A stretch of DNA of 64,000 nt from Patescibacteria group bacterium (GCA_038065555.1 JBBTQS010000001.1:256741-320740); one strand, 5' to 3'; shown: positions 21,760 to 48,139, numbered from the stretch's first letter. Notes: a model not told the origin generated them from the letters alone. Numbers and translations: made by a program.

Positions 21760-21761
21760 AA

Positions 21762-24316: not shown

Positions 24317-27300
24317 TTAAAGCTGTGTGGTCAGAATCGTGTAATTGACGAAGTACGCGTCTGGGACATCGACTACTTTCTTCGCCCAGTCTGCGCCATA
24401 GAGCTCTACAGCACGTGCCTCAGTCGAGACCCACTGCAATGTAGCGTCTGCTGTCACTGCGTAGACCTTCGGAACTGTCGTGATCTTCACGAGGTATGTA
24501 CCTGGCTTGATCGTCATATTCTTGCCGAGCGAGAATGTGGCGAGCTGCTCTGGTGTGATTGTCTTCACCTTGCTGAAGTCCTTGCCATACCAGCTGTGAT
24601 ACACCGCTTCCATAGGGAATGACCGTCGAGTTCCTGATGCGTCAATGTAGTAGACTGCTGTGTTACCGTCGATCTTCACAAGATCGCCCACGCTCAGTCC
24701 AAATGGGATCTGGACACCAGGGACTGGAGTTGTTGGGAGCTTGTCACCCGTAACTGGTGGAGGCGTGACAACGCCGCTTTCTGATGCTGCTGTAACTGTA
24801 ATAGAATCACTTGCAACGGCTGATACCGCACCTGTCGCGCTTGCGAACTTCACATATACTGTCTTGCTTCCATTTCCTGCGCTGAGTGTGAATGCACGTG
24901 AAGTCACGTACGGCTCCCAAACACCTCCAACAAATTCAGGATGTTCGCTCACTGCCATTTCAGATGCACCTGTTGCTGTGAGTTGGAGTACGACGTTGCG
25001 TGATGCTGTTGACGCTGCGTTGGCATTGATGACTACTGTGCCAGCAACTGTTGTTGCGCTTGTAGCACCTGTTGATCCAGATGATCCTTGGCTCAACACA
25101 CTAATCGTTGTGGTTGATGCGTCCGTTGTATTTGTTGCATCCACAAATGCTACCGAAAGCGTTCCGTTACCTGTCATGTCGAGTGTTCCGTCGCCCACTG
25201 ATGCAACGTTGGTACCACGTACCGTGAGCGCACCACGGAAAATTCCTGTTGCAACGCCGGTCTCGGTCATGAGCACTGATTCTGCGTCACCAGTGTTGCT
25301 GTAGAGACGAATCTGGTTAGACCCAGCAGTCATGCTTTCGGACGTTGAGCCATTGAGATTGCCGTCGTCGTCATTTACTTCCACGTAGAGTAGATCTCCT
25401 GCGCGATACGTAATGGTTGATTGCTGTGTACCAGAGCCATCAACAAACCGGAGATACCCATTCGGGTTAATAATTGTTCCTGTTTGTGTCAATGTTCCGC
25501 TGTTGGCGATGCTGCCAACCGCTGGAACCGTGAGATCAACTCCGGTATCTACTACGACAGTTGTTCCTGCTGCAATCGTGAGTGTTCCCATCACTGTCGT
25601 TGTTGCAGTGAATGTGAATGTCTGCCCAGAAGCAGAGATCGTAACATTACCTGGGTATACAAATGTACTTGGCAAGTTACCACTTCCTGTGAAGGCAACC
25701 GTACTTGTTGAAGCAAATCGATACTGGTTGTTTGTGACGGCAATTAATTTTGTTGCATCTGTCGATGCTACCGTAAATGTACCACCATCAACACGGATGT
25801 ACGCAAGAGTTGTTGTAACGCTTGGACGAGTCACTGTGAGTGAGTACCCTGCTGGGATAATCATCGTACTCGAAACAGCGATTTTGCCGAGGTTCATTGT
25901 TCCAGCACTCGCGCCTACTGACTGAAGCGTGCCAGACTGTGTCGTCGAAATCGATGTTGTTGCTGAACCTGCAGTAATCGTTCCCGCTGCAGTCATGAGC
26001 ACATCACCTGCGAAAGTGATTCCAGTAGTTCCGTTAGGCAAAACGATACTCGTTGATGCACCAGTTACAAGGAAGTCATTTGTAACAACCATTGGATCAT
26101 CGAATACATCGAATCGAAGTGTACCTGTCGCAACAGTGAGATTAATGACATCCCAATACCCCATCACATTCGTGAGACTACCACTTGCTGATGTACCAGG
26201 ATAGAGTGTGCCTGATTCCTTACGAATGTATACATCGTAAAACTGTACTGTGGACGAAACAAACTGATCGCCTGTACCATCGAAAATAAATACGTTTTCG
26301 CCTGCTGTAATCGCTGCCGCACCCAGACGTTGGTAGAAGTGCCCACCGACATTGAACTGTCCTGTTCCCCAGAGCAAGCCAATATGCGTCCCTGGATTGC
26401 ACAATCCTGCACCCGATGCTTCGAGTGATAAAGTGCCGTCAGCATCAAGTGTTGCGTTCTTTGTGCGGAAATCTGCGTTACCTTCGGTAACCTTGAGGTG
26501 CGTTGTTGCTAAGCCACCACTCACGATCATTGTTGAAGCACTAGCACACGGGAGTGTTACCTGAAACGTACCAGCAAAAACATGGTTACTCGTTGAAGTT
26601 ACGTAATAAGTTCCAGAATCCTGTGGATCGTAAGAATATGTCGTGCTCACTGTGCTCAGTGTTGCTGATGAACCGATCTGGATATTTCCCTGGAATGTAT
26701 ACGTTGGCGTACCGAGTGCGAGTCCGGCTTGCGCGTTATTTGCGATAGTCAGTGAACCACCTTGTGTCCACGCGATGTTATTTGTTTGGAAATCAAAGAG
26801 TCCTTGTGTAATTGTCGCTGCACAGTACGAGGTCAATGTATCGGATACAAGAATAACACTGTCTGAGGATCCACCTGCTGTATTATTTACTTCAATAGTG
26901 CAGTATGAAGCAGATGAACCTGGTCGGAATGTCTGTGATGCAGCGGTACCACCGAATTCAAGCGCGAACATGTGCGCTTCGTCGAGCGTGAGTGTTCCAC
27001 CGTTGATCATCCAGTCACCCTTCACCGTGGTATCGAGCGCAGGCAAAAAAGTTCCCGAGTTCAACACAAGATCGTCGTTGAATACTGCGGTACCACTATT
27101 AAAAGTAGAAGTAACAGTACCACCTGCGATAGTCATCGCACCTCCGGCCGTCAACGTATATGTTGCAACATTGAATGTACCCGCAGAAATCGTTGATGAT
27201 GCGATTGTAGCGTTGGCACCGAGTGTAATAATACCAGAGTATCCAGATGCAACACGCACTACAAGGTTTGAATAACTCGAGGCAAATGTAGAATCCCAAG

Positions 27301-27523
27301 TTGCATTCGATGTGGATGTGCCGTCGAAGACAATAGTGTCCCCATCTGCAGGTAATGTATTACTATCCCAGTTGGATGCTGTGCTCATGTTACCACTGCC
27401 ATCCCAGGTCTTGGTTGCAGCATGTGTGTCAGCTTGTACACCCACAAACAATGCAAATGCACCTAGGAGCACCCCCGCAGTCCGCAATCCTTGCAACACA
27501 AATGATCTTGTTCCCATACGCAT
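24317..27523 (-). CDS. giant Ser/Thr/Gly-rich cell-surface protein A (beta-helix/Ig-like repeats) with C-terminal about 115-aa shared domain
   Basis: Signal peptide MRMGTRSFVLQGLRTAGVLLGAFALFVGVQA; about 900 aa of T/S/G/A/N-rich beta repeats; C-terminal KPGTYLVKITTVPKVYAV...DVPDAYFVNYT domain homologous to the N-terminus of the 37216-40914 protein. Confidence 0.7.
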   Translation of the reverse strand: MRMGTRSFVLQGLRTAGVLLGAFALFVGVQADTHAATKTWDGSGNMSTASNWDSNTLPADGDTIVFDGTSTSNATWDSTFASSYSNLVVRVASGYSGIITLGANATIASSTISAGTFNVATYTLTAGGAMTIAGGTVTSTFNSGTAVFNDDLVLNSGTFLPALDTTVKGDWMINGGTLTLDEAHMFALEFGGTAASQTFRPGSSASYCTIEVNNTAGGSSDSVILVSDTLTSYCAATITQGLFDFQTNNIAWTQGGSLTIANNAQAGLALGTPTYTFQGNIQIGSSATLSTVSTTYSYDPQDSGTYYVTSTSNHVFAGTFQVTLPCASASTMIVSGGLATTHLKVTEGNADFRTKNATLDADGTLSLEASGAGLCNPGTHIGLLWGTGQFNVGGHFYQRLGAAAITAGENVFIFDGTGDQFVSSTVQFYDVYIRKESGTLYPGTSASGSLTNVMGYWDVINLTVATGTLRFDVFDDPMVVTNDFLVTGASTSIVLPNGTTGITFAGDVLMTAAGTITAGSATTSISTTQSGTLQSVGASAGTMNLGKIAVSSTMIIPAGYSLTVTRPSVTTTLAYIRVDGGTFTVASTDATKLIAVTNNQYRFASTSTVAFTGSGNLPSTFVYPGNVTISASGQTFTFTATTTVMGTLTIAAGTTVVVDTGVDLTVPAVGSIANSGTLTQTGTIINPNGYLRFVDGSGTQQSTITYRAGDLLYVEVNDDDGNLNGSTSESMTAGSNQIRLYSNTGDAESVLMTETGVATGIFRGALTVRGTNVASVGDGTLDMTGNGTLSVAFVDATNTTDASTTTISVLSQGSSGSTGATSATTVAGTVVINANAASTASRNVVLQLTATGASEMAVSEHPEFVGGVWEPYVTSRAFTLSAGNGSKTVYVKFASATGAVSAVASDSITVTAASESGVVTPPPVTGDKLPTTPVPGVQIPFGLSVGDLVKIDGNTAVYYIDASGTRRSFPMEAVYHSWYGKDFSKVKTITPEQLATFSLGKNMTIKPGTYLVKITTVPKVYAVTADATLQWVSTEARAVELYGADWAKKVVDVPDAYFVNYTILTTQL

Positions 27524-27536
27524 TATTATTGGTCGG

Positions 27537-27545
27537 AGTATAGCA
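27537..27545 (-). promoter_or_regulatory. extended -10 promoter TGcTATACT
   Basis: Minus-strand GTGCTATACT 13 nt upstream of the ATG of surface protein A (near-leaderless). Confidence 0.4.
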
Positions 27546-27549
27546 CACT

Positions 27550-28683
27550 TTAGAGTTGTCGGAAAAGTTTTTGCATTCTTTGGGCAATCACTGACCAATC
27601 GAAATTCCTTGCGCGTCGAAGTCCTTCTCCGCGACAGCGCTCTCGCAGTTCGTTATCGCCGCGTAACCGTGTAATTGCCTCTGCGATAGACTGTGGATTA
27701 TTCGGCTCACAGAACACGCCACTCACATCAGACTCCACAATATCTGGGATGCCGCCAACAGGGGTAGCAACAACAGGGATTCCAGCTGCCTGCGCCTCCA
27801 GGAACACATTCCCCAACCCTTCAGAGATCGACGCGCGACAAAATACATCACTCGCATGCAGATATGCAGGCAGATCACGATGGCCAACAGATCCGACGAA
27901 ATGTACTCGCTCACGAATGGATTGCGCCCGCTGTCGCAACACTGGCTCCAGCCCACCACTCCCCACAATTACTACATGCGTGTCCAATGGTAATGCAGCA
28001 CATGCTGCAATCAAATCGCCAACACCATTCTTTTCAACCAACCGAGAAACCGTTATTACAACCCATGCGTCAGCTGGTATTCCGAGTGTTTTTCGCACCT
28101 CGCTGCGCGTTTGCGCCGGTTGTGCAAAATGCGCCACTGCAACGCCATTTGGGATCACCTCTACACGATTGCCCGCATACCCCATCTTCACTGCCCATGC
28201 GCCCAGTGACGAGCTAATCGCATGTATCACTGATGCGCGGCGAAAAATCGCCTGCACCATCCAGAAAAAGCCTCTTGATGCGCGACGAATATGTTCCTCG
28301 CTGTCCCCTTCTTGCACAGACAATACAAAAGGAATCTGTGGACGAAATGCTGCGACAATGCGTGCTGCCAGCCCTCCATAACTCGCCATAATCGCCCAAA
28401 TCGCTTGTACATTACGATGACGAAACGCAATAAGTGGTGCCAAAAGAGGCAATAACACCTTGTCGAGTGCCGCAACACCCACACCAATACGATGCACTTC
28501 CACATTTTCTATGTGTTCGTTTGTCGCGAGTCCTGGCTTGATCCGCGCACAGTAGAGAATCCAACGATACTCAGGAATGCGACGAGTAACCTCTTGTACC
28601 GCAATCTCAGCACCTCCAATAAGCGGCAAATACGCGGTGGAAAAAATCAAAATGGTTTTCTTTGCGTGCACCGCCTGATCCAT
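27550..28683 (-). CDS. glycosyltransferase family 4 (GT-B, GT1/GT4)
   Basis: GT4 N-terminal domain pattern (ILIFSTAYLPLIGGAEIAV) and C-terminal EGLGNVFLEAQAAGIPVV motif. Confidence 0.75.
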   Translation of the reverse strand: MDQAVHAKKTILIFSTAYLPLIGGAEIAVQEVTRRIPEYRWILYCARIKPGLATNEHIENVEVHRIGVGVAALDKVLLPLLAPLIAFRHRNVQAIWAIMASYGGLAARIVAAFRPQIPFVLSVQEGDSEEHIRRASRGFFWMVQAIFRRASVIHAISSSLGAWAVKMGYAGNRVEVIPNGVAVAHFAQPAQTRSEVRKTLGIPADAWVVITVSRLVEKNGVGDLIAACAALPLDTHVVIVGSGGLEPVLRQRAQSIRERVHFVGSVGHRDLPAYLHASDVFCRASISEGLGNVFLEAQAAGIPVVATPVGGIPDIVESDVSGVFCEPNNPQSIAEAITRLRGDNELRERCRGEGLRRARNFDWSVIAQRMQKLFRQL

Positions 28684-28688
28684 ACGTT

Positions 28689-29648
28689 TTATACCTTAGT
28701 CGTCCTGCGAACTTCTTTCTTGAAATAGGCAACTGATTTTTGCAATCCTTCGCGCAATGAGACCTTGGGCTCCCAACCAAGAATCTCCCGAGCACGGGCA
28801 ATATCTGGCTGACGACGACGTGGATCATCTTCGCGTGGCGCGCTGTGTACAACCTCACTACGACTCTTCGTGACAGCCAACACTTCAGCAGCAAGTTCAT
28901 TCACTGTGAACTCAGTGGCGTTACCGAGGTTGATCGGTCCGTGCACATCTGGCGCGCTCGCCATCATACGAACCAACCCGTCAACGAGATCTGAGACATA
29001 ACAAAAACTTCGCGTCTGTGATCCATCACCATCGATGCGAATTGTCGTTCCTTTGATCGCTGACACGATGAAATTACTCACCACGCGTCCATCCTCTAAC
29101 GCCATGTTCGGACCGTACGTATTGAAAATCCGCACCACCTTCACTGGCGCTTGATACTGTCTAATATATTCAAAACACAGCGTCTCAGCGAGACGTTTGC
29201 CTTCGTCGTAGCATGCACGCGGGCCAATCGGATTCACCGAACCCAAATAGGTCTCCGGTTGTGGGTGTACCTCAGGATCTCCATATACTTCTGAGGTCGA
29301 TGCATGCAGGAGCGTCGCACCTTTGGCTCGTGCAAAAGCTAACAGCTGACGAATTCCATCCACGCTCGCAGCAATGGTCTCAAATGGAAATGCAAAATAT
29401 TTTGCTGGTGACGCAGGGCACGCGAGGTTATAAATCTCATGCACAGGCTCTGCAATCTTGAGTGGACGCGTTACATCGTGCTTCTTGAACACAAACGCAC
29501 CAGACTTCGAAAGTCCTCGCAGATTCCGTCGATCGCCGGTGATGAGTGAGTCCACGCCAATGACGCGATGCCCCTGCTCGAGCAAGACGCGCACCAAGTG
29601 ACTCCCGATAAATCCAGCTGCACCAGCGACGACAATGGTTTTTTGCAT
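28689..29648 (-). CDS. UDP-glucuronate decarboxylase / UDP-xylose synthase (NAD-dependent epimerase-dehydratase SDR)
   Basis: GAAGFIGSHLV Rossmann motif, YDEGKR catalytic YxxxK, and FNTYGPNM...DGSQTRSFCYVSDLVDGL typical of UXS/ArnA-decarboxylase type enzymes. Confidence 0.75.
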   Translation of the reverse strand: MQKTIVVAGAAGFIGSHLVRVLLEQGHRVIGVDSLITGDRRNLRGLSKSGAFVFKKHDVTRPLKIAEPVHEIYNLACPASPAKYFAFPFETIAASVDGIRQLLAFARAKGATLLHASTSEVYGDPEVHPQPETYLGSVNPIGPRACYDEGKRLAETLCFEYIRQYQAPVKVVRIFNTYGPNMALEDGRVVSNFIVSAIKGTTIRIDGDGSQTRSFCYVSDLVDGLVRMMASAPDVHGPINLGNATEFTVNELAAEVLAVTKSRSEVVHSAPREDDPRRRQPDIARAREILGWEPKVSLREGLQKSVAYFKKEVRRTTKV

Positions 29649-29717
29649 AGACCCGTTATTCTCTGTATGATGCTAACTACACCATATTTCTTCGCAAAAG
29701 TAAACAAAACACGTTCT

Positions 29718-30878
29718 ATGTCCACCACTCCCCACCCACGTCTCACGGTTGGACTCCTCATTACGCAAGGCCATTGGGGTGGTGCGCAACAATACGTCTT
29801 CGATCTTGCAACGCACCTCGCATCCGAGATGAACGTCGTTGTAGGCATTGGCTCTCCAACACGCGGCCAAGAATTACAACAACGCCTTGCGGCATGGAAT
29901 ACGGCGCATCCCAAATCTCCCATCACCATACAACAACTCACGCATCTTGTGCGCGAGATTTCTCCATTAAAAGACCTTCGTGCGCTTGCTGAAATCAAAA
30001 ACTTCGTTGTACGCAATCACCTTGATATTCTCCACTGCAACAGTGCCAAAGCTACAGTGATCGGTTCATTTGCAACGCGTGCGCTCCCTGTCCGACGCGT
30101 CACAACAGTACATGGATTCACATTCACCGAACCACTTTCCTGGGCACGCAGAGCGTTCTACCGAACACTCGAGCGAATCGCCAGCACCTCTGCACACCTG
30201 CTCATTTGTCCAGATCGCGCATCATACGCCATTGCCAAGGACTCATTCCACATTCCACAATCGCGCCTCGCACTGATTCCACACACACGCACGGACATCG
30301 CGTTCCTTCCACGTGATGCAGCACGTACTGCGCTTGCAAAACACATAGGACACACGATCACAGATCACACCCAAATCATTGGATCAATTGCTAATTTCTA
30401 CAAAGTCAAAAACCAAGCGCTCCTCCTCGAGTCCTTCGCACTCCTCGCACAACAAAATCCCGAAGCCATTTGCATACTCATCGGAGACGGCAGCGAACGC
30501 CAAAACCTAGAGAGTATTCGCACATCACTCCCCTGCGCAAACCGAATTTTCTTCGCGGGTGCAATCGAAAACGCCGCAACACTTCTGCGAGGATTTGAAG
30601 TCTTCGCACTGACTTCAGACAAAGAAGGATACCCATTTGTTCTCCTCGAAGCTCGCGCCGCTGGTATCCCCATTGTTGTGCGCAATATCGGTGGCTGTCC
30701 TGAAATTATAGAAGGGGTGAGCAACGCTAGTAGCGTCACCACCCCCACTCCCACAGCAATTGCTGCGGCACTCACACGCGCACTCGAACAAAATCCTATT
30801 TCACAAACGCGCACATCGAGTGAACTCATGCACAATGCAACGCGTGTACGTTACCATTCTCTAGTCACGAACCAATAA
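29718..30878 (+). CDS. glycosyltransferase family 4
   Basis: GT4 fold; EGYPFVLLEARAAGIPIV motif; start taken at MSTTPHPRL. Confidence 0.7.
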   Translation: MSTTPHPRLTVGLLITQGHWGGAQQYVFDLATHLASEMNVVVGIGSPTRGQELQQRLAAWNTAHPKSPITIQQLTHLVREISPLKDLRALAEIKNFVVRNHLDILHCNSAKATVIGSFATRALPVRRVTTVHGFTFTEPLSWARRAFYRTLERIASTSAHLLICPDRASYAIAKDSFHIPQSRLALIPHTRTDIAFLPRDAARTALAKHIGHTITDHTQIIGSIANFYKVKNQALLLESFALLAQQNPEAICILIGDGSERQNLESIRTSLPCANRIFFAGAIENAATLLRGFEVFALTSDKEGYPFVLLEARAAGIPIVVRNIGGCPEIIEGVSNASSVTTPTPTAIAAALTRALEQNPISQTRTSSELMHNATRVRYHSLVTNQ

Positions 30879-32966
30879 TTCGTAGAACCGAGCCAACTCT
30901 TCATCCTTCACAACCTTTGCAACCTGAATGGCAACCTGACGTGCCTGCTCTGTCATAGTCTCAGGTCGTCGTGTGCGCACTTCTCGGAACATTTCCGCCG
31001 ATGCCACAGCATCATCAAATGCGGCGTAGAGCATCGCTGCGCGCCAATACGACTGACCAACTGCAGGATCAAGTGCAATCGCTTCTTTCATTGCCGCTTC
31101 AGCCGCGGGCTTGTTACGCAGCACCAACTGCGCCTGCGCTACTTCATACAGGAGCTGCTGACGTTTGGGTGAAAGTGCCCGCGCCTGCTCTAACACCTGC
31201 AATACCATGAACTGACGAGCCGCATTGTTGGTAATAATCGCTTCCTGCTGCAACATCTGTGCGCGCAACACCGCGATACGCAATTCAAAAGGACGCTTTT
31301 GCAACTGCGCTTCTAAGTCAGGCAATACCACTGTGTAGGTTTCGGAGTGCAACGACTTGGCGAGCGCAGTTGACGCTTGTGTCGCTGCATTCAGGAACCG
31401 AACAAGTGCCGTTGCGAACTCGCGAGTAATATCATCGTCGTGCGGCGATTGATACGACTTCGCCTGTGCATACAACCGCATTGCTTCTCGTGTGAGTGGA
31501 ACTGCTTGTTGTGGGTTCTGGTTGGACCCAGCCAACATGAGATGCTGCAACGCGAGCAATGTTGACGCGTTTGCCTGCGCCGTACGCACATTTCCTTGAT
31601 AGATGAGCAGCACAGCAACAAGTACAGCGACAATCGCCACACCTGGCGCAGCGGTTCGCGTCGGCGACAATCGTGGGAGCTCCTGCTCACCCAACGCACT
31701 GCGCCGATCAATATAGGCAAGCAATACGAACCACGCGAGATACGAAGTCACATTATCGAACACAAAGAGATTGTGCACGAAATACGCAACCAGGAACATC
31801 TGCAACACGAGTGACTCTTCCCACGATTCCTTCCCAATGCGCACAGCACCAATATACGCGCACACGAAGAGCGCGAGGTATGCGACAAGCCCCACAACCC
31901 CCTGTGTCGTTAACGTATTGAAGACAATGTTATGGGCGTTATCAAACCACGTTTCTGAATCTCCAAACCGCAAGAATTCTGGATCAAAGTGTTCATTAAA
32001 TGCAAAGTAGAAGGTGTTGAGCCCCCATCCTTGGACCGGATGTTCCTTCCACGCCTCAATCGCCACGCTCCACGTCATAATACGCGTTCGCCCCGTACCC
32101 TCAGTCAACGACAAATGCGTCATGCGATTAAGGAATGGCTGGTTACGTATGACCGTGGTATCTCGAGCCAACCAGAGCCCTGCGAGCAACACTACAAACC
32201 CAACGCACGCAGCAAGTGTCCATTTGCGCACACGAGCATCCACCCCCTTCCGGAACAACACCAGGAGCATTCCCACAACAACAGCAACCGCCACACCAAT
32301 CATCGTACCGCGTGTCTTGGTCGGCAAAATTGTCGCAAGCGCAATCACACCTGAGATCGCCCACACCCATCGTAACTCGTTCGACTTCTCCTTCACCCAC
32401 AACACCGCGGCAATCGAAGCCAAGAACAGTGCATATCCACTCACATAGATCGTGTTGCCGAGCGTCGAACGCACGCGATCGCTCCCCTCATTGAGCAAAA
32501 AAAGTGGATTGCTCACCTGCAACCATGCAATCAACACAAATGGGAGGCCAATAATCAGAATCCAAATGAATAACGCACGCCATTCCTTCCACGTTCGGAA
32601 CACCTGACGACTCACGAAGTACAACGCAACATAATGAAAAATTGTGTACAAACCAAGCATGCGCTCATGATTGTCCCAGAGACTGCGACGCACATCCACA
32701 CTCCAAACCGTAGAGAGAATACCCGCCAAGATGAACCCAAGCACCGCATACAAAATCGGCGTACGTCGAATCTGCGAACGCTCAGTTGCATACAGCGCTA
32801 TATACCAAGCATACACCGCCGCAAGCAGTGTAATCATGACGCGCAAGAACAACACCTTTGGAACCACAAACGGAAACACGTACGATGCCGTTGTAACAAT
32901 CAGCGGTGTAATGAACGTGAGCGCTACACCAATTTGCAATATCCGCGTCAAAACTCGATGAGACAT
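30861..32966 (-). CDS. O-antigen ligase (Wzy_C) family membrane protein fused to C-terminal TPR repeats (paralog 1)
   Basis: about 12 TM helices with the Wzy_C core (ILPTKTRGTMIGVAVAVVVG) and a large periplasmic loop, then about 250 aa of TPR-like helical repeats. Confidence 0.65.
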   Translation of the reverse strand: MSHRVLTRILQIGVALTFITPLIVTTASYVFPFVVPKVLFLRVMITLLAAVYAWYIALYATERSQIRRTPILYAVLGFILAGILSTVWSVDVRRSLWDNHERMLGLYTIFHYVALYFVSRQVFRTWKEWRALFIWILIIGLPFVLIAWLQVSNPLFLLNEGSDRVRSTLGNTIYVSGYALFLASIAAVLWVKEKSNELRWVWAISGVIALATILPTKTRGTMIGVAVAVVVGMLLVLFRKGVDARVRKWTLAACVGFVVLLAGLWLARDTTVIRNQPFLNRMTHLSLTEGTGRTRIMTWSVAIEAWKEHPVQGWGLNTFYFAFNEHFDPEFLRFGDSETWFDNAHNIVFNTLTTQGVVGLVAYLALFVCAYIGAVRIGKESWEESLVLQMFLVAYFVHNLFVFDNVTSYLAWFVLLAYIDRRSALGEQELPRLSPTRTAAPGVAIVAVLVAVLLIYQGNVRTAQANASTLLALQHLMLAGSNQNPQQAVPLTREAMRLYAQAKSYQSPHDDDITREFATALVRFLNAATQASTALAKSLHSETYTVVLPDLEAQLQKRPFELRIAVLRAQMLQQEAIITNNAARQFMVLQVLEQARALSPKRQQLLYEVAQAQLVLRNKPAAEAAMKEAIALDPAVGQSYWRAAMLYAAFDDAVASAEMFREVRTRRPETMTEQARQVAIQVAKVVKDEELARFYELLVRD

Positions 32967-32976
32967 ACCGGCAAAA

Positions 32977-37073: not shown

Positions 37074-37124
37074 AGAAAATACTACACACCACTATACCCC
37101 GACACACCCCGCTCTGTTAAGAGC

Positions 37125-37170
37125 CACACAATAACAAAACCCCCCAGTTTCCCGGGGAGTTTTGTTTTGG
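37125..37170. terminator. intrinsic terminator CAAAACCCCC-AGTTTCCC-GGGGAGTTTTG for surface protein B gene
   Basis: 11-bp stem (one G-U) with T/U tracts on both sides, 50 nt after the stop of the 37216-40914 gene. Confidence 0.5.
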
Positions 37171-37215
37171 ATGAGGTCATTCCTCTTGCGAGGAAGCCGC
37201 AACCGCTAACCTAGA

Positions 37216-40914: not shown

Positions 40915-41081
40915 AAGAATGATTACTTTCTATTAATTGCACTTACCTGTGACCACCGCACTCGCGGTGTCGACCCTAATGAGTCACAGTCCTCGGTATC
41001 CTTATCGCGAGACAAGGGATACACACGAGCCTGTCGCCGTCCGGGGCATCGCCGGGTGCGGCAGGCAGCGTGTATATCTCT

Positions 41082-42293
41082 TTATTCTTGTACGTTTGGA
41101 GTCGTACTTGGAATCTGTATTGTACTGCTCACGGTAGTAGACGCAGCAGGAGTGATTTCGATACTCTTTGTGGTTACTGGTGTGAGTGGTACTGCTAATT
41201 TTGCAGCAGCATCCACGTCCATGGCAGCTTGTTGCACAATCTTTGCTTGCGCGGTTACCTCCATCGTCGCAGGTCCGAGCACTCGAATCTGCAGTGCCGC
41301 TGCTGCGACATTATCCTCTTCGAGCAATACCTTGGTCTTTGCTACAACTTCGCGCACTTCTTCGCTCTTGCGTTGTACCTGCATTGCAGGAGCAATCACC
41401 TTGGATTTCTCAGCTACCATGCTCGGCTGAAGTGGAGATGCTTGCACGGATTTCACTGCGCCATTCACGTCCTCTGTTGCACCTGCAACCTTTGATTCAA
41501 TTTCCAACAATTTCTTGTCTACAATTTGTCGTACTTCATCCTTTGAGATTGCATCGTTCCCTTTCGCAAGTGAATCTACATACACCTCAACAGTCTTCAC
41601 ACTCGTCACACCCACTGCAGCCTCTGCTGCAATGACAGCGTCTTTCACACTGTCGTCCCCTGCTACTTCTGCGAGTACTTTTGCTTGATCAATCTGCACG
41701 AGATAACGAGTTGCATGAACGTCCATGGATTTTGCAATATCTACCGCAGTAACTGAGTCAGAATTCTTGAGATGTTCGAGTGTTGCATTCACCTCGGTCA
41801 TGCTGTCCTTGAATCGCTGCACCGCTTCCATCGCTTTTTCTGGTTCTGCAATTACTTTTTGTGCTTCGTCGAGGCGTCGGGTTGCGTATTCAGCTTGCAG
41901 CTGTGTCTTGGCCGATGTTCCTTGCGTAGCGCCTACAACAGCAACTGTAGTGTTCTCAATACCAATCTTCACTGGATACCAGACATCTCCCGGCACACTA
42001 TTGAGCGAAGCAAATGCACCAGTCACCCACGATCCTGTTGCAATACCGAAGGCAACACCCATGAGCACAATTGGACGAACCACGGCATACACAGTGCGTG
42101 GTGGGATGAAAATAGACAACAAAAGCCACATGTTCGCAAAGGAGAACATGCGAACGCGTGGCGTGGAACCAGTATTAGACAACGTCGAGAGAAGATGCTC
42201 ACGCGTTGCATGCACAAACGCCGCACGTGGATTGATATTTCCACGAACGTCATTGAGCTGATGTAAGTTGTGGCGCAACTGTCGACGGGTCAT
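41082..42293 (-). CDS. putative anti-sigma factor / membrane-anchored helical protein (DUF5667-like)
   Basis: Directly downstream of the ECF sigma gene; single TM (IVLMGVAFGIATGSWVTGAF), then a long Ala/Val/Lys/Glu-rich helical extracytoplasmic domain. Confidence 0.45.
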   Translation of the reverse strand: MTRRQLRHNLHQLNDVRGNINPRAAFVHATREHLLSTLSNTGSTPRVRMFSFANMWLLLSIFIPPRTVYAVVRPIVLMGVAFGIATGSWVTGAFASLNSVPGDVWYPVKIGIENTTVAVVGATQGTSAKTQLQAEYATRRLDEAQKVIAEPEKAMEAVQRFKDSMTEVNATLEHLKNSDSVTAVDIAKSMDVHATRYLVQIDQAKVLAEVAGDDSVKDAVIAAEAAVGVTSVKTVEVYVDSLAKGNDAISKDEVRQIVDKKLLEIESKVAGATEDVNGAVKSVQASPLQPSMVAEKSKVIAPAMQVQRKSEEVREVVAKTKVLLEEDNVAAAALQIRVLGPATMEVTAQAKIVQQAAMDVDAAAKLAVPLTPVTTKSIEITPAASTTVSSTIQIPSTTPNVQE

Positions 42294-42304
42294 ACGAGAA
42301 GTAC

Positions 42305-42877
42305 CTATTCAACTTTTAGAATTTTTCGTAATGCTTTCATTGCGCGGTGCGTGGTGACACGGACATCAACACTTGATTTGCCTAGGATCTCAGCAACCTC
42401 TGTTGCAGAGAGTCCATCGACATACCGGAAGAGAACGACTTCTCGATACTCTTCTTTGAGTTGTGCGATCGCGTCGAGCACCTGCTTGTGATCGTGCGCT
42501 GTCTCAATCTTCTTCACGCCTACTCCCTTGTCAGAGAGATGTGTGAGATGATCGTCAGGCAATTCGTCTTCATCCGGGAATCCTGTTACTTCATTGCGAC
42601 TTGCTCGCCGTCGATAGAGATCGATCACGAGGTTGCGCGCAATGCGGTAGATCACGGCCCGGAATGAGCGAACATCCGTGTGCTCAGTGATATAGTTCCA
42701 TGCTTTGAGGAACACATCTGCTGTGAGATCCTCTGCATCTTCGTGACTATTCACCTTGAAATACACGAACCGATAAATGGACGTCACATACGTGTCATAC
42801 AGCTGCGCATAGGCCTGAGGGTCTTTGCGTGTCTGTGCACGATAGAGCCAATATTTCTCTTTTATGGCGTCCTTCAT
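42305..42877 (-). CDS. RNA polymerase sigma-70 family ECF-type sigma factor
   Basis: Region 2 (DLTADVFLKAWNYI...RNLVIDLYRRR) and region 4 HTH (LSATEVAEILGKSSVDVRVTTHRAMKALRK); 190 aa. Confidence 0.8.
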   Translation of the reverse strand: MKDAIKEKYWLYRAQTRKDPQAYAQLYDTYVTSIYRFVYFKVNSHEDAEDLTADVFLKAWNYITEHTDVRSFRAVIYRIARNLVIDLYRRRASRNEVTGFPDEDELPDDHLTHLSDKGVGVKKIETAHDHKQVLDAIAQLKEEYREVVLFRYVDGLSATEVAEILGKSSVDVRVTTHRAMKALRKILKVE

Positions 42878-42950
42878 CTCAAGATGACGTTAGCATTAGG
42901 AAAGTGTTACACCTGTGCACAACTCGCCCTTCTAGGGCGTATGGTGCCGT

Positions 42951-42959
42951 AGTATAGCA
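42951..42959 (-). promoter_or_regulatory. extended -10 promoter TGcTATACT upstream of the sigma factor gene
   Basis: Minus-strand TTTTGCTATACT about 75 nt upstream of the sigma gene ATG; adjacent to a 12-bp hairpin (42958-42991) overlapping the end of the upstream GT4 gene. Confidence 0.35.
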
Positions 42960-42971
42960 AAATCAGTGGAT

Positions 42972-44195
42972 TTAGCCACTGATTTTGCTTGTTTGCGCTG
43001 AAATTGAATGTTTTTTCAGGTCCTGAACTGCCATTCCAGCAAGGGCTGTGTACCGTTTGCTCAGAGATTGAGCCAGGGTATCCCAGTCATATCGCAGGGC
43101 GATACGCTGGCGAGAATAGCTCGATCCCATCGCTACCCAGGCAGGATCAGTGACTGCGCGCATAATACGCTCAGCCAATACACCCTTGGCGCCAACAGGA
43201 TACTGCCACGAGAGATCTCCCATGGCTTCACGATGTGGAATAATGTCGCTTACAATCACTGGAACGCCGTACACCATCAACTCAAGCACACTCATCGGCA
43301 ATCCTTCTGCATGCGACGCGTGCACGCCTACGTAGGCGTTACGCATAAGTGCTGCAAGTGCAAGACCGCTCTGATAGCCTGTGAAGATGATATCTTCGTG
43401 ACCACGTGCGCGCTCGTGCAACTCTGCTACATATTTCTCTGTGTAGCTCCCATCCCCCACGATCACGAGCTGCATTCCCTGCATGCGCGGATCCAGAGAT
43501 AGACTCTTCGCAATGATGAATGCATCAATTGCTTCATGCACTGCTTTGTGCGCAATGAGACGTGTAACAACTACGATGTATTTCTTTGGTTCGATATTCC
43601 AAGGCGCAATGAGTGCACGTTCTACTGCTGGAACTGCTGGCCATGGCTGTGACGCACCATTAGGAAGGTATGTTGCTGTCTCGTTGTAGCTCTTCTTGAT
43701 GTACGTACGAATCATGTGTGAGCTGGCAAGCACTTCGTGTGCTGCCTTCACCGACACCCACTCACCCAAGTGCAACATCATCCGCGCAAACCATCCCCAC
43801 TTCGCATGCTCACGATCAATAGACTGAAAGCTCACGATGACCGTGGCACCAGGACGAAAGATTCGCGGAAGGAATGACAAGAGTGAAGGCCCAACTCCAT
43901 GGAAATGATACACATCGAACCCCTGCCACATCGCGTGGATTGTGGCGAAGAAGGTATGCGTGATGGCATCGAGATGCTTGGTGTGCATCGTTGGCACCAT
44001 CTGGAGACGCATCCCCTTGTACGTGCGCTTCTTGATGCGTGTATACCAGCTACGGCAATACACAGTGACGCTGTGGCCCATCTCAGCAAGACGAGACCCC
44101 AATTCATCCACCGAACGTTCAATACCGCCAAAAATCGCAGGCGCCCCTTTGGCCCCGATCATCGCGATCTTTAGTTGATTAACGGTATTTTTCAT
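42972..44195 (-). CDS. glycosyltransferase family 4
   Basis: GT4 motifs (IAMIGAKGAPAIFGGIE ... EGLPMSVLELMVYGVPVIVS); start at MKNTVNQLK downstream of a canonical promoter. Confidence 0.7.
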   Translation of the reverse strand: MKNTVNQLKIAMIGAKGAPAIFGGIERSVDELGSRLAEMGHSVTVYCRSWYTRIKKRTYKGMRLQMVPTMHTKHLDAITHTFFATIHAMWQGFDVYHFHGVGPSLLSFLPRIFRPGATVIVSFQSIDREHAKWGWFARMMLHLGEWVSVKAAHEVLASSHMIRTYIKKSYNETATYLPNGASQPWPAVPAVERALIAPWNIEPKKYIVVVTRLIAHKAVHEAIDAFIIAKSLSLDPRMQGMQLVIVGDGSYTEKYVAELHERARGHEDIIFTGYQSGLALAALMRNAYVGVHASHAEGLPMSVLELMVYGVPVIVSDIIPHREAMGDLSWQYPVGAKGVLAERIMRAVTDPAWVAMGSSYSRQRIALRYDWDTLAQSLSKRYTALAGMAVQDLKKHSISAQTSKISG

Positions 44196-44212
44196 ATGGA
44201 AATAACCGCGAT

Positions 44213-44241
44213 TTATACCATATGCAAACCGTTTTGTCAAG
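44213..44241 (-). promoter_or_regulatory. sigma70-type promoter CTTGACAAAA-17-TATAAA
   Basis: Minus-strand TTGACA -35, 17-nt spacer, TATAAA -10, and start codon about 17 nt after the -10. Confidence 0.5.
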
Positions 44242-44329
44242 TCTACCTATTCCAAAAAGTGCTAAAATAAAACAAAAATGCCGCATAAACGGCTAAAATA
44301 AGCACTATAAATTGCCTGTGGATAAGTCC

Positions 44330-45505
44330 CTATTTTACAGCATTTTGTATTGCCTGCTGATAGGCCATGAGTAGACGTCCGTAGTGGACAACTGGGGCGT
44401 GGTAGAGCGTAACCCAGGCCCGAGCCTCATCCCCTATTGCCTGCACCTGGCGAGGCTTCAGTGCCTGCACGTGGGCAATGGCTGCTGCCCAGGCTTCTGG
44501 CGTACTCTCGTGCACCAGGAACCCCGTAACACCATGCTTGATCTGCTCTGGAATGCCACCTGCACGTGCAGCAATAACCATCTTGCCCATTGCCTGCGCC
44601 TCGAGCACTGCAAGTGGGTAATTCTCAGGCCACTGAGATGGCACAGCCACAATACTAGCCTGCGTCATCTCCTGACGCAGCGCATCCTTGCTCAGATGCC
44701 CCACGAAGATAACACGATCATCCAACGCATGCTCTCTCACCAACGACCGCAACGACGCTTCCAGTGGCCCGGTCCCAGCAATGACCAATCGACACGTCGG
44801 CACCAATGCCACTGCGCGAATCAACAACTCAACACCCTTCTCGTGTGACAATCGTCCCGCGTATAGCACACTCCCATCACCGCCTGGCGTGAAGGGAATC
44901 GCCGCGACATCAACGACATACGGGAACCGCACAAATCTCGCGCGTGGCCACCCAGCACGCACACAATACTCTTGCATGAATTTGCTCGGCGCATGAAACA
45001 GTGTCACACCACGCGCATAGGACCGCGCAATCTGGTGCACCACACGCTCCACCATTCCACCAACCTTCTCTGTGAAGGATCTCGGAATCACCAACGCGTA
45101 ATTCGCATCAACGAGTTTGTAATCATGCAACGTCATGAGCACAGGAATGTGATGCTTCACCAGTACATGCAATATCGCTGGAGTGAGATGATGATAAATA
45201 TTATGCACGTGCGCTACATCAAATGGTCCTTCCTCAGCAATGAGTTCATCGAGTTGACGCGCTGCCTGTGAGTTCCACACAACTCGTTTTGCCTTTTGCA
45301 CGGTATCCAAGAGCGTGCGATTCGCGCGCAGATCCAACTCATCTACAAAATATTTTTCGTATGGTGTAGGAAGATTGTGATCGCCCTTCATCGCAAAAGG
45401 CACCACGGTATGCCCGTAAGATTCCATGAGTGCATTCACGTCAAGGAAGTAGGTGCTGGCACCATCTCGATAGAAGTAATGCTTGTGTATTGCCAGAATC
45501 TTCAT
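44330..45505 (-). CDS. glycosyltransferase family 4
   Basis: MKILAIHKHYFYRDGASTYF... GT4 N-domain; C-terminal EGVELLIRA...ENYPLAVLEAQAMGKMVIA motif. Confidence 0.75.
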   Translation of the reverse strand: MKILAIHKHYFYRDGASTYFLDVNALMESYGHTVVPFAMKGDHNLPTPYEKYFVDELDLRANRTLLDTVQKAKRVVWNSQAARQLDELIAEEGPFDVAHVHNIYHHLTPAILHVLVKHHIPVLMTLHDYKLVDANYALVIPRSFTEKVGGMVERVVHQIARSYARGVTLFHAPSKFMQEYCVRAGWPRARFVRFPYVVDVAAIPFTPGGDGSVLYAGRLSHEKGVELLIRAVALVPTCRLVIAGTGPLEASLRSLVREHALDDRVIFVGHLSKDALRQEMTQASIVAVPSQWPENYPLAVLEAQAMGKMVIAARAGGIPEQIKHGVTGFLVHESTPEAWAAAIAHVQALKPRQVQAIGDEARAWVTLYHAPVVHYGRLLMAYQQAIQNAVK

Positions 45506-46596
45506 ACGCGCTCACGTGCAAGTAATCGCAGATACAGCGTCTCATACTCTCGCACCATATCCTGAATCCGAAAATGCAACAACGCATAGGTACGCGCTGC
45601 ATCAGCATGTCGTCGCAAATGCACATGGTCTTCGCATGCAAATTCAATAGCAGCGGCAAGCTCGTTCACATCAGTACTATCAACAAGCGTACCCGTCTCA
45701 CCATCAATCACAATCTCTGCGATACCGCCCACACGACTTGCAATGACAGGACGCCCTGCAGTCATTGCTTCCATCACAACCAATCCCAACCCCTCCCAGC
45801 GGGAGGTCAACACAAAAACATCGTGTGTTGAGAACACTTCAGGGATATTGTCTGTCGTTCCGTAAAATTGTACTCGATCGTCGATTCCCAATGCTGCTGC
45901 CTGAGACTGCAATCGCGACAGCTCTGTCCCCGCTCCCACAATAGTCAATCGCCAATCACTACGCACGAGCGCGCACGCATTCAACAACAGATCAAATCCT
46001 TTTTGATGCTCGAGGCGACCAATACTCAAGAGACGCAGCGGCGTGCGCAAGAGCGGAGCAGGAATCTTCGCAAATCGGTCTACGTCAATTCGGTTGAGAA
46101 TCACACTGAGCTTCGATGGCGATACACCTTCTACACGTGTTGCATATTCAGCAACTGATGCAGAGACCGCGATAATGCGATCAGTGATACGCGAGAGTAC
46201 ACCCTTGATCCAATGCTTCCACTGCGGCTCGTCATACCACTGATTGTGCTCAGTAGAGAGAATGAGTGGCACACCAGCGAACCACGCAGCAACCTTGCCA
46301 TACGCGTCTGCACCAAAGAGATGTGTGTGCACAATCGCTGGTTTTTCTTTGCGCAACCACTTCGTGAGCCGCCACAAATACGCCAGACTCCAACGACCAT
46401 GTGCTGTCATAGGAACCACACGTACTCCATGAGATTGAATAACATCAACAAGTGGCCCAAGAGCAATCGTTGCAACCACAGTTAATTCAAATTTCGCGTG
46501 GTCATGATACCGCGCGATTTCTGCCAGCAGTCGTTCGGCTCCACCGAACTGCAGCGTCGGAATTAAATGAATGACTTTGATTCTCGGTACTTCCAT
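45502..46596 (-). CDS. glycosyltransferase family 4
   Basis: IKVIHLIPTLQFGGAERLL... and EGLGLVVMEAMTAGRPVIAS motifs; 4-nt overlap with the upstream GT gene. Confidence 0.7.
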   Translation of the reverse strand: MEVPRIKVIHLIPTLQFGGAERLLAEIARYHDHAKFELTVVATIALGPLVDVIQSHGVRVVPMTAHGRWSLAYLWRLTKWLRKEKPAIVHTHLFGADAYGKVAAWFAGVPLILSTEHNQWYDEPQWKHWIKGVLSRITDRIIAVSASVAEYATRVEGVSPSKLSVILNRIDVDRFAKIPAPLLRTPLRLLSIGRLEHQKGFDLLLNACALVRSDWRLTIVGAGTELSRLQSQAAALGIDDRVQFYGTTDNIPEVFSTHDVFVLTSRWEGLGLVVMEAMTAGRPVIASRVGGIAEIVIDGETGTLVDSTDVNELAAAIEFACEDHVHLRRHADAARTYALLHFRIQDMVREYETLYLRLLARERV

Positions 46597-47972
46597 ACCA
46601 CAACATGAGCGCCCACGAGCAACAACCCAATCGGCAACCACATTTTGCCGGAATAATACGACGTATTAAAAATCTGATACACAATCGCCCCCGATGCTGC
46701 GACAAAGAGCGCCACCACCAGCGGATACTCCGGAAGTGACCGTGCACGCATCACTCCCCGCCATCCATACAACATAAATATCGTGAGCATCAACACCCAG
46801 GTAATGAGTCCCAACAGTCCACTCTCAGCAATAATCTTCTGCAACATCCCGTGCGCATCGAGTGGATCACCATACTCGATCACATACACATGCGTATCTG
46901 CAACAATGGACAAGAATGTTCCCGGTCCCTGACCCAACAGCGGTCGATCGCGGAAATACTCCCAAGAAATTCGCGCCAAATCAATACGCGTGTCATTGCT
47001 CCCCGCCACCAGCGAGCTCGTACTAATCGCTATCATGTAGACGAGTATTGGCAACAAGAGCGCAAGCGCCAACCCGACCATCTGCCGGCGAAATCGCACG
47101 ACAGGAAGTCGACCAATAGAATCGCGCATGAGCCATAACGCAAGCAGGCATTCAACGAACAATACAATCCACGCACTGCGCGCGAACGTAAGTAACGTTG
47201 CAACCAGAATCAATGCATTCCCCACGAACAACCAACGACGCACATGCGGACGATCTTCCTGATGCAACAAATACGCACCAATAGGCAGAATAACCACGAG
47301 CACTTCAGCCAACAAATTATGGTTAGTTCCAAACGGCGTCCAACCAGCAAGTGCAAAAGGCGTCACACGAGTCCACCCACCTTGGGCCGCTCCTAGTATC
47401 AACGAAATCATCCCCATCACCGCGCCCCCAACTCCGACACCGTACATCCACCGCAGCACACGATCCAACGCCTCACGCGTTCGTACAATAGTGAACGGAA
47501 GGAGCACCCACATCAGATACATGAAGAGCATCGGTCGCAGTACGTATTTGACCCCAATCCCCAGCGCATCTTCACGCGTCGCAAATACCACCGACAACAA
47601 TTGTACAAACAAAAATAACCAGAACACCGCACTATGCGGCGCGAGTCGTGGCCGCTCCTCACGCCCAGGAATTCCCCACAGTGCGAGCAATCGCACGCTA
47701 TACGAAATCAACAACACTAATGCAAAGAAATCTGCAGCCGGTGCATCAATCGTATTGAGTATAGGAATATGTCGCGACCAATTGTACACACCGAAATTAA
47801 TCACCCACCCACTCATCGGCATGAGCGCCGCAAGCAAACACATCCCTGCGACAGGAAAAAAAGCCAGCGCAGTAATCACACCAGCGCCTACTAGGACAAT
47901 AAGAGGTAACCAACCTGGTATGATCGTTGCAAGTATTGCTGCCCCAACCAGTGCCACAAAAAAAACAAACAT
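46563..47972 (-). CDS. O-antigen ligase (Wzy_C) family membrane protein (no TPR tail)
   Basis: Polytopic membrane protein with the LTFARSAWIVLFVECLLALWL Wzy_C core; start uncertain. Confidence 0.6.
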   Translation of the reverse strand: MFVFFVALVGAAILATIIPGWLPLIVLVGAGVITALAFFPVAGMCLLAALMPMSGWVINFGVYNWSRHIPILNTIDAPAADFFALVLLISYSVRLLALWGIPGREERPRLAPHSAVFWLFLFVQLLSVVFATREDALGIGVKYVLRPMLFMYLMWVLLPFTIVRTREALDRVLRWMYGVGVGGAVMGMISLILGAAQGGWTRVTPFALAGWTPFGTNHNLLAEVLVVILPIGAYLLHQEDRPHVRRWLFVGNALILVATLLTFARSAWIVLFVECLLALWLMRDSIGRLPVVRFRRQMVGLALALLLPILVYMIAISTSSLVAGSNDTRIDLARISWEYFRDRPLLGQGPGTFLSIVADTHVYVIEYGDPLDAHGMLQKIIAESGLLGLITWVLMLTIFMLYGWRGVMRARSLPEYPLVVALFVAASGAIVYQIFNTSYYSGKMWLPIGLLLVGAHVVVWKYRESKSFI

Positions 47973-48071
47973 CGTACGACGTTCGACGAATGATTGCGTG
48001 ACGGAACGAGAGATGCGCAGCGCGTGCATATGCGTGCAGTATATCACAAACTAAACACCTCGAACCCAAAA

Positions 48072-48112: not shown

Positions 48113-48139
48113 ATCAACTACGCTCGTGTGCGTAGGATG

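Follow-up and report, generated by a model that had tools for sequence, protein, structure and literature searches.

The gene block

In the genome of a bacterium of the Patescibacteria, also known as the candidate phyla radiation (CPR), we examined a 64-kb stretch of DNA (JBBTQS010000001.1:256741-320740; hereafter the window, to which all coordinates refer unless a related locus is named) that contains, at positions 24317-48047, a block of 14 tightly packed genes, designated here A to N, of which 13 are located on the minus strand and D alone on the plus strand. An initial annotation had described this block as a supercluster of surface glycoprotein genes that might constitute a dedicated protein O-glycosylation system. 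The limits of the block coincide exactly with the limits of open reading frames (ORFs), namely, the 3' end of A at 24317 and the 5' end of N at 48047, and its content is as claimed, with the Wzy_C (PF04932), family 4 glycosyltransferase (GT4) and Epimerase domains confirmed by Pfam searches. Altogether, the block encodes four Wzy_C proteins, five GT4 proteins, one UDP-xylose synthase (UXS) and two Ser/Thr-rich secreted giants, along with a sigma factor of the extracytoplasmic function (ECF) type and its DUF5667-containing membrane partner. As described below, the central part of this block recurs in distant CPR genomes and is a candidate for a system that modifies a large surface protein.

Read in the direction of the minus strand, the block starts with gene N (46563-48047), which encodes a Wzy_C membrane protein of 494 amino acids (aa) with approximately 12 hydrophobic segments (52.7 bits, compared to the Pfam cut-off of 31.7 bits for this family) and without a tetratricopeptide repeat (TPR) tail; this protein may act as a polymerase or else be a fourth transferase. 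Next come three genes on the same strand for GT4 enzymes, namely, M (45502-46641; Glycos_transf_1, 148.9 bits, and Glyco_transf_4, 89.9 bits), L (44330-45505; Glycos_transf_1, 128.4 bits) and K (42972-44240), the latter with a DUF1972-type N-terminal half according to its Pfam matches and a weak resemblance to WchF/Cps2T (65 bits with the NCBIfam Cps2T model, far under its cut-off). Gene J (42305-42877, minus strand) encodes the ECF-type sigma-70 factor, which matches Sigma70_r2, Sigma70_r4_2 and Sigma70_ECF, and gene I (41082-42293, minus strand) encodes a single-pass protein (transmembrane segment 66-94) with an extracytoplasmic DUF5667 domain (36.4 bits) and an S/T/P-rich tail. Gene H (37216-40914, minus strand), for a secreted surface protein of 1232 aa without any Pfam domain, precedes a tandem array of three genes for larger Wzy_C proteins on the same strand: G (35193-37073; 626 aa; Wzy_C, 72.2 bits, and a helical, TPR-like C-terminal domain), F (32977-35196; 739 aa, a Wzy_C-TPR protein; Wzy_C, 53.8 bits, and TPR_2, 34.9 bits) and E (30861-33017, with the probable start at M18, position 32966; Wzy_C, 70.8 bits, and a TPR-like C-terminal domain). 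The array is followed by the GT4 gene D on the opposite, plus strand (29568-30878; probable start at about 29718) and then, again on the minus strand, by C (28689-29648), a UDP-glucuronate decarboxylase, i.e. UDP-xylose synthase, of the Epimerase family (PF01370) that matches the structures of human UXS1 (4gll, 2b69) with 331 bits and an E value of 5e-98, by the GT4 gene B (27550-28683; Glycos_transf_1, 128 bits), and by A (24317-27598; probable start at M26, position 27523), which encodes a T/S/G-rich secreted protein of 1093 aa. The assignment of B, D, K, L and M to GT4 is based on the Pfam families Glycos_transf_1 and Glyco_transf_4.

Conservation of gene order

ORFs were called in 82 related loci (1.26 Mb in total) and searched with the window proteins. 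A core of approximately 15.4 kb, with the gene order sigma-DUF5667-H-Wzy_C(n)-GT4-UXS-GT4, was detected in at least 20 CPR loci, down to approximately 23% sequence identity. The order of the core, including an H homologue of approximately 1230 aa, three Wzy_C genes and the GT4 gene on the opposite strand, is present in loci L001 (62% identity to F) and L004 (37%). Because the order of the core genes recurs in many distant genomes, their co-localisation is not due to chance. The unit of conservation in distant relatives is this core rather than the 24-kb supercluster of the initial annotation. Homologues of the core of A were found, among the related loci, only in the closest relative (L001/L005), homologues of N are present in only two of the 82 loci, which places N outside the conserved core, and the N-M-L-K block is not traceable in the relatives; L001 has an L-like GT4 gene in the same position and a K-like gene upstream of the sigma factor gene.

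The adjacency of the H and Wzy_C genes was assessed in 50 non-redundant loci that were seeded with Wzy proteins and had 3.5 kb or more of DNA before the first Wzy_C gene. The H homologue ends less than 1.2 kb upstream of the Wzy_C array, which consists of one to five genes, in 20 of the 50 loci, and in 25 of the 28 loci that possess H, it is co-oriented with the Wzy_C(-TPR) array and lies directly upstream of it. The sigma factor gene is found upstream of H-like genes in 18 loci, with the DUF5667 gene following it in 14. On the other side of the array, a GT4 gene on the opposite strand occupies the position of D in at least 15 loci, the GT4 gene after the UXS gene (the position of B) is conserved as well, and in 42 of the 82 loci, no more than 10 kb separates a C-like gene from a Wzy_C-TPR gene.

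In the reverse test, which was seeded with three distant H homologues (loci L083, L084 and L085), the sigma factor gene was found upstream of H in all three loci and a DUF5667 match was recorded in L083 and L084. Directly downstream of H, each of these loci encodes a small, membrane-anchored, stand-alone TPR protein of 215-239 aa (L083:12781-13458, L084:12671-13318 and L085:12636-13355); in L085, this gene is followed by a Wzy_C-TPR gene, an orthologue of E and the sole Wzy_C gene next to H. Given that only one of the three loci seeded with H has a Wzy_C gene after the TPR protein, H is associated with a TPR module even more generally than with Wzy_C.

Some other features of the related loci are worth recording. 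A gene for an S-adenosylmethionine-dependent methyltransferase is inserted between the DUF5667 and H genes in L083 (7607-8374) and L084 (7874-8620). In loci that contain a single Wzy_C-TPR gene and lack H, secA is located 3-5 kb downstream in four of the five loci tested (L034:15632-18193, L039:15598-18099, L072:15243-17867 and L024:17394-19865). The ORFs of approximately 820-900 aa near such single-copy genes had been considered as potential surface proteins and were rejected, being SecA in four of the five cases and UPF0182 in the fifth.

The Wzy_C proteins of the array

The proteins E, F and G are old paralogues, with 25-30% identity (30% for the membrane domains of G and F); E can be aligned with F along its entire length and, as indicated by a best-hit analysis by array position, is the best conserved of the three and usually the product of the last gene in the array. 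The initial annotation spoke of Wzy_C-TPR proteins, and this holds at the Pfam threshold for F, whereas the TPR matches in E and G are sub-threshold only (the best one in G is to TPR_19, E value 0.001). In the databases, the Wzy_C proteins go under the name 'O-antigen ligase'. A PDB sequence search with the F-family profile retrieved TPR proteins only, and nothing when the membrane domain alone was used; among the NCBIfam models, E, F and N have far sub-threshold matches (PEP_O_lig_1 and IctB) and G has none, so that these searches were uninformative.

The AlphaFold2 model of F, which was built on an alignment of 44 sequences including non-CPR Wzy_C proteins (pLDDT 92.8, pTM 0.90), has 13 transmembrane helices and, C-terminal to them, a repeat domain made up of helices only (residues 472-738). 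The Wzy_C proteins of the array have the WaaL-type membrane fold, and in fold comparison the best match is WaaL itself; the TPR domain of F is structurally similar to the peptide-binding TPRs of the Hop/Sti1/CHIP type and to the TPRs of OGT and SPY. The catalytic outer loop of F contains R285, GWGPE at 303-307 and H335-x10-G346. Across 14 sequences of the CPR family, R215, R285 and H335 are invariant, with H335 in the context H-x10-G-x2-G, and so are the glycines of the GWGPE motif, G303 and G305; the broader alignment, of 44 sequences, retains R285 without exception and H335 almost without exception but shows no conservation of R215. The essential residues of Escherichia coli WaaL are R215, R288 and H338, and the conserved ones of PglL are R224, R298 and H349 (PMC3643930); R215, R285 and H335 of F correspond to this Arg/Arg/His set.

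Under the positive-inside rule, the Arg-rich loops of F at 189-196, 236-241, 370-374 and 421-431 mark the cytoplasmic side of the membrane. Because these loops and the predicted helices set the topology, both the catalytic loop (266-336) and the TPR domain are predicted to be extracytoplasmic; in this model, it would be the 13th helix, which is absent from WaaL, that brings the TPR domain to the outside.

The surface proteins and a shared terminal module

The presence of Ser/Thr-rich surface proteins, another element of the initial annotation, is supported by the composition of H and A, with Ser and Thr together accounting for 25.1% and 25.6% of the residues, respectively; both proteins have an N-terminal hydrophobic segment of the signal type. 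In H, the signal peptide is followed by a module that we denote 'dom' (residues 39-165; positions 40420-40800, minus strand), a disordered linker rich in A, G, T, S and P, which is of low complexity throughout the family, and approximately nine beta-sandwich domains. In the AlphaFold2 model of H (pLDDT 85.7), the N-terminal module has an alpha/beta fold, and the beta-sandwich part matches only generic strings of Ig-like domains in Foldseek searches; neither the SLH domain nor any other known S-layer domain was detected in H with Pfam. There are at least 472 full-length homologues of H, of approximately 1150-1300 aa, all of them annotated as 'hypothetical' and all from Patescibacteria where the source is named.

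The 'dom' module, of approximately 125 aa, is common to H and A: residues 41-158 of H align with residues 968-1087 of A with 45% identity, and in A the module is C-terminal (residues 960-1093; positions 24320-24721, minus strand). It matches 4256 representative proteins of 159-2248 aa (E <= 1e-3), in which it occupies the C-terminus or follows immediately on the signal peptide, in some cases in more than one copy, and it matches no Pfam family. In one homologue of H (P0111), PG_binding_1 takes its place. The 'dom' module is likely to be a new cell-surface anchoring domain. We propose that H is the main glycan acceptor of the system; A, which lies outside the conserved core, is possibly a second, putative acceptor.

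Regulation of the H gene

The H gene appears to be a transcription unit of its own because a terminator-like hairpin, predicted by reading the sequence, follows its stop codon (37130-37157, minus strand; CCCCGG-GAAA-CUGGGG and then a U-run) and a promoter-like site, predicted by a promoter scan, precedes G (37091-37120, minus strand; TTAACA-18-TATAGT). The ECF sigma factor encoded next to H, together with the DUF5667 protein, probably governs the expression of H. Protein I is presumed, from its position only, to be an anti-sigma factor or a sensor partner of J; it contains DUF5667 and one transmembrane helix only, and no zinc-binding anti-sigma (ZAS) or RskA domain was found in it with Pfam.

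The 167-nt leader of H (40915-41081) is strongly structured, with a minimum free energy (MFE) of -65.3 kcal/mol and a z-score of -3.67. It contains, at 40947-40989 (minus strand), an RNA motif composed of a stem, P1, the unpaired sequence AAAGGUCGR and a GC-rich hairpin, P2. A strict structural descriptor was passed by 17 of the 28 H leaders, compared to 0.46% of flank-shuffled controls. A covariance model built in two rounds (R2) produced 13 hits with E < 1 in 1.33 Mb of loci, all of these in H leaders and five outside the training set, and the segment 40947-40989 is its best hit in the whole window, with filters off (17.4 bits, E value 0.021; the next hit has an E value of 1.2). In the model-fitted alignment, 96.9% of the cells are paired, compared to 63% in the shuffled version and 46-50% with slid partners, and compensatory changes are seen in 11 of the 12 pairs of the motif, with the reservation that fitting the alignment to the structure biases it toward pairing. 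RNAalifold run on a plain MAFFT alignment recovered the inner hairpin only because J1, the unpaired segment between P1 and P2, varies in length. Outside the window, the motif is located at L044:1676-1714, L060:5940-5978, L035:5768-5806, L051:6050-6088, L016:3907-3946, L014:6026-6064, L011:5928-5970, L006:3996-4030, L007:4188-4224, L085:8573-8617, L083:8560-8606, L048:881-927 and L009:1532-1568. At the gathering threshold, Rfam has no match in the window or in the leaders of L035 and L083-L085; at E <= 10, the region 40850-41150 yields only a chance miRNA match on the opposite strand.

Two earlier attempts on this region were abandoned. The sequence GGTCGA had been taken as the -10 box of an ECF promoter, which was rejected as the principal interpretation because the motif lies inside the covarying outer stem that must be transcribed. 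The first RNA descriptor, with 69 hits compared to approximately 46 in shuffled sequence, was too loose, and the stricter test described above was substituted for it.

Several additional elements were noticed in the leaders. A long hairpin at the start of the I-H leader, right after the stop codon of I (41018-41078, minus strand; GAUAUACACG...CGUGUGUAUC), is part of the MFE fold of the leader and could be a terminator, an attenuator or a part of the H leader; arms of the form GATATA...GTGTATC similar to those of this hairpin were seen by eye in L005, L006 and L007. Very long H leaders, of 380-630 nt, are present in L035 (5700-6281), L083 (8375-9003), L084 (8621-9003) and L085 (8454-9003), and the long leaders contain further conserved blocks 3' of the GGUCG motif (AAGCGGGATTCCGAYTGAT, GCTTTTCTCCGCG and TTATAAACCTT) that have no Rfam match and could form a larger RNA. 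In the more distant H leaders, of the Paceibacteria type (L029, L038, L065 and L076), AGGTCGA occurs two or three times, at intervals, upstream of the H-like genes, and the P1 and P2 stems are lacking, which suggests that the sequence motif itself may be recognised by some factor.

Proposed function and comparison with known systems

We propose, with a probability of about one half, that the Wzy_C-TPR enzymes are O-oligosaccharyltransferases (OTases) that glycosylate H. Under this hypothesis, the expression of H would be set by the ECF sigma factor and its DUF5667 partner, with the conserved structured leader carried by the H mRNA, and the H protein, a string of beta-sandwich domains, would be held at the cell wall by its N-terminal 'dom' module. 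Outside the membrane, the TPR domain of G, F or E would bind the exported surface protein, and the Wzy_C domain would transfer to Ser/Thr (or Tyr) residues of H, in one piece, an oligosaccharide assembled beforehand and linked to undecaprenyl pyrophosphate. The glycan would be built by the neighbouring GT4 enzymes, probably with xylose supplied through the UXS enzyme C, and other proteins that contain 'dom', such as A, might be acceptors as well.

A Wzy_C enzyme that acts on an adjacent surface protein is a known type of system. In the S-layer glycosylation (slg) clusters of Geobacillus stearothermophilus (WsaB/WsaA) and Paenibacillus alvei (WsfB), similarly to the CPR module, the setting is monoderm, a predicted OTase of the Wzy_C type is combined with TPRs, and the genes are clustered with those for glycosyltransferases, nucleotide-sugar enzymes and a large surface protein that is the target (PMC2943079). 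In particular, WsfB is an S-layer OTase with a C-terminal TPR region, and WsaA is a TPR protein adjoining WsaB (PMC2943079), an arrangement reminiscent of L085, where the stand-alone TPR protein after H is followed by Wzy_C. The likeness to WsaB and WsfB is one of architecture, and there are several differences: the slg clusters have one enzyme instead of three to five tandem paralogues, and the CPR module lacks an initiator of the WsaP/WsfP type and a clear Wzm/Wzt exporter, its target has 'dom' in place of SLH, and it includes an ECF sigma factor and a DUF5667 protein of its own as well as a leader RNA.

With PglL, PilO and TfpM, the CPR enzymes share the Wzy_C domain, the Arg/Arg/His set and the location of the enzyme gene beside a co-oriented target gene (PMC3643930); for pglL homologues, the target gene is adjacent in 21 of 31 cases, and Schulz et al. 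predicted PglL/pilin pairs in this way (PMC3643930). By contrast, the PglL_A (PF15864) and Wzy_C_2 motifs were not detected in the CPR enzymes, which instead possess a large TPR domain, and the CPR targets are wall proteins of approximately 1200 aa with multiple Ig-like domains rather than pilins. WaaL (PDB 7TPG/7TPJ) has 12 transmembrane helices and no TPRs, whereas the CPR proteins have the 13th helix and an external TPR domain of approximately 270 aa; the lipid A-core acceptor of WaaL is not expected in CPR bacteria. OGT and SPINDLY also consist of a TPR superhelix, structurally matched by that of F, fused to a glycosyltransferase, but this is an analogy only, given the different catalytic folds and donors and the lack of homology between the catalytic parts. 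The eukaryotic TMTC1-4 proteins, which are TPR-guided protein glycosyltransferases, are analogous to Wzy_C-TPR in design. As for the anchoring module, 'dom' is similar to SLH, CWB2 and PG_binding_1 in being a terminal module of thousands of secreted proteins, and differs from these domains in having no Pfam sequence match.

The features that appear new compared to these systems are the tandem TPR-fused paralogues, the 13th helix, 'dom', the combination of the sigma/DUF5667 pair with a leader RNA, and the occurrence in a superphylum with an uncharacterised envelope. Our literature searches found no paper describing this module and nothing specific on O-antigen ligases, Wzy_C or glycosylated S-layers in CPR bacteria.

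Alternative explanations

The notion of a dedicated O-glycosylation system, put forward in the initial annotation, is favoured by the H-Wzy_C adjacency, the predicted extracytoplasmic location of the TPR domain and the precedent of WsfB and WsaA, and is weakened by the lack of an initiator and a flippase. Indeed, several observations weigh against the OTase hypothesis. Neither an initiating phosphoglycosyl transferase (Bac_transf) nor a Wzx flippase was found in the scanned ORFs of the window or in the annotated loci L001, L004 and L083-L085. The ABC-2 pair adjoining A (21900-23617) has DrrA/DrrB as the best matches, with a weak similarity to KpsM (E value 1.6e-6, far below the cut-off), and this DrrAB-like transporter, convergent with the block, occurs in L001, is missing from the vicinity of the module in L004 and shows no conservation in distant loci. 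With respect to gene order, no intact copy of the whole 24-kb block was detected beyond the closest relatives, H is not directly upstream of the array in 60% of the Wzy_C-TPR loci, and L083 and L084 have no Wzy_C gene within 9 kb of H. As for the proteins themselves, PglL_A (PF15864) and PF11846 were not found in E, F, G and N at E <= 0.01; this absence does not exclude OTase function because PilO also lacks the PglL accessory motifs (PMC3643930). More generally, OTases, ligases and polymerases cannot be separated by sequence or fold (PMC3643930), TPR domains are known in scaffolds for polysaccharide export, according to a reference cited in PMC2943079, and the only relative with a solved structure is a ligase with a lipid acceptor.

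In the main alternative, the module would be machinery for a wall polysaccharide: a capsule or secondary wall glycopolymer would be produced, by polymerisation or ligation, through the Wzy_C-TPR proteins together with UXS and the GT4 enzymes, 'dom' would bind this polymer, and the glycan would thus serve to anchor H and not to modify it. Anchoring of proteins by a wall glycan is known in Firmicutes, where SLH domains bind the pyruvylated secondary cell-wall polymer and CWB2 domains bind PS-II. Such a role would fit the presence of several tandem Wzy_C genes with five GT4 genes, the many Wzy_C-TPR loci without an H gene, the modular character and wide spread of 'dom' together with its replacement by PG_binding_1, and the TPR export scaffolds mentioned above, and some Wzy polymerases also carry Wzy_C (PMC3643930). 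A weakly Wzz-like ORF of 203 aa at 53397-54008 (minus strand; 21.1 bits, with a cut-off of 25.5, i.e. sub-threshold) points in the same direction. The module, however, contains no Wzx, initiating transferase, LCP ligase or above-threshold polysaccharide co-polymerase (PCP) protein; furthermore, the TPR module is found beside H even without Wzy_C, which points to a protein partner, and the strict head-to-tail order of H and Wzy_C resembles that of OTase/substrate pairs. We regard the polysaccharide role as less likely than the OTase role but as a serious alternative. The same persistence of TPR proteins beside H (L083, L084 and L085) could indicate, improbably in our assessment, that the TPR membrane proteins are chaperones or docking factors in the assembly or secretion of H, with Wzy_C as a mere scaffold; the similarity to the peptide-binding TPRs of the Hop/Sti1/CHIP type and the proximity of secA (3-5 kb) to the single-copy Wzy_C-TPR gene in four of the five loci tested are compatible with this possibility, but the strict conservation of the Arg/Arg/His set and H-x10-G in the CPR family would not be expected of a scaffold, and the GT4 and UXS genes are consistently co-located.

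Ordinary lipopolysaccharide (LPS) machinery, with the Wzy_C proteins as O-antigen ligases or polymerases acting on lipid A-core, is suggested by the best structural match, WaaL, and by the database names, and an ORF in a nearby GC-rich island ends in the outer-membrane-protein-like sequence ...LLGVRF. This explanation is very unlikely, in agreement with the initial annotation, which had set the Wzy_C proteins apart from O-antigen ligases: the source is a member of the Patescibacteria, the one Parcubacterium genome examined lacks the lipid A and LPS genes, including lpxC and kdsA (PMC5220378), no Lpx, Kds, Waa or Lpt genes were found among the ORFs of the 64-kb window, and WaaL has neither the additional transmembrane helix nor a TPR domain on the outside. 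The remaining probability belongs to mixed or unforeseen roles. Returning to the OTase hypothesis, a more specific version of it, which we offer only tentatively and would rate as unlikely in all its details, is that H is the major envelope protein, possibly the S-layer protein, in a large part of the Patescibacteria, that it is attached to the wall through the new anchoring domain and O-glycosylated with a xylose-containing glycan by a lineage-specific set of one to five TPR-guided Wzy_C enzymes, and that it is controlled by the sigma/DUF5667 pair and the new leader RNA. Indirect hints at an S-layer role are the separate transcription unit of H, with its structured leader and terminator-like hairpin, and the beads-on-a-string arrangement of its domains.

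The source organism and the surroundings of the block

The relatives of F come from CPR metagenome-assembled genomes (MAGs), including Uhrbacteria, Magasanikbacteria, Nealsonbacteria, Giovannonibacteria and others, and the source organism is a member of this group; the record titles 'uncultured Gammaproteobacteria' or 'Saccharibacteria' on many of the MAGs that carry the module (L005-L009, L013, L020 and others) look unreliable. The window includes murG, ftsW and a partial ORF with a Glycos_transf_4 match (63226-63963), presumably mraY, adjoining one another in a partial dcw cluster (61026-63963, minus strand); given these genes, the organism probably makes peptidoglycan.

On the plus strand next to the block, a Peptidase_C39_2 protein and the DrrAB-like ABC-2 pair (20914-23617) are convergent with gene A, and an ABC-2 permease also adjoins the A homologue in L001. 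On the other side lies a GC-rich island (48100-53300; approximately 60% GC compared to 51% elsewhere) with ORFs that have no Pfam domains; these include a Cys-rich protein with a signal sequence and CxDGxxCTxDxC repeats (48586-50334) and the secreted coiled-coil protein (50659-52092) with the ...LLGVRF C-terminus, which is odd for a presumed single-membrane organism, so that foreign DNA or an assembly chimera is possible. Further away, the window encodes a full-length RND pump of the AcrB family (5953-10878, minus strand; 766 bits) adjoining an adaptor of the HlyD type, which is unusual in a monoderm and has no outer-membrane factor nearby, as well as a VirD4/TraG-like coupling ATPase (957-3464, plus strand), a tmRNA (57542-57935, plus strand) and a tRNA-Gln(CTG) (5835-5908, plus strand).

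Implications

Because CPR bacteria are thought to be attached to or dependent on other cells, the cell surface is of central importance to them. How the envelope is formed and built is unclear for all CPR bacteria studied, and a glycosylated S-layer has been the subject of speculation in the paper on the Parcubacterium genome (PMC5220378). The module described here provides a set of testable envelope candidates, namely, a surface protein of approximately 1200 aa, an anchoring domain, likely decorating enzymes and likely control by a sigma factor and an RNA, and so makes the almost unknown CPR envelope experimentally approachable. If the Wzy_C-TPR proteins are indeed protein O-oligosaccharyltransferases, this class of enzymes would be extended to a new superphylum, in the form of naturally diversified, TPR-guided enzymes that might be of use in glycoengineering. 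Should the more specific picture of H as a xylose-glycosylated major envelope protein also be true, the module would represent protein O-glycosylation by several enzymes, a kind of system for which no bacterial example has been described.

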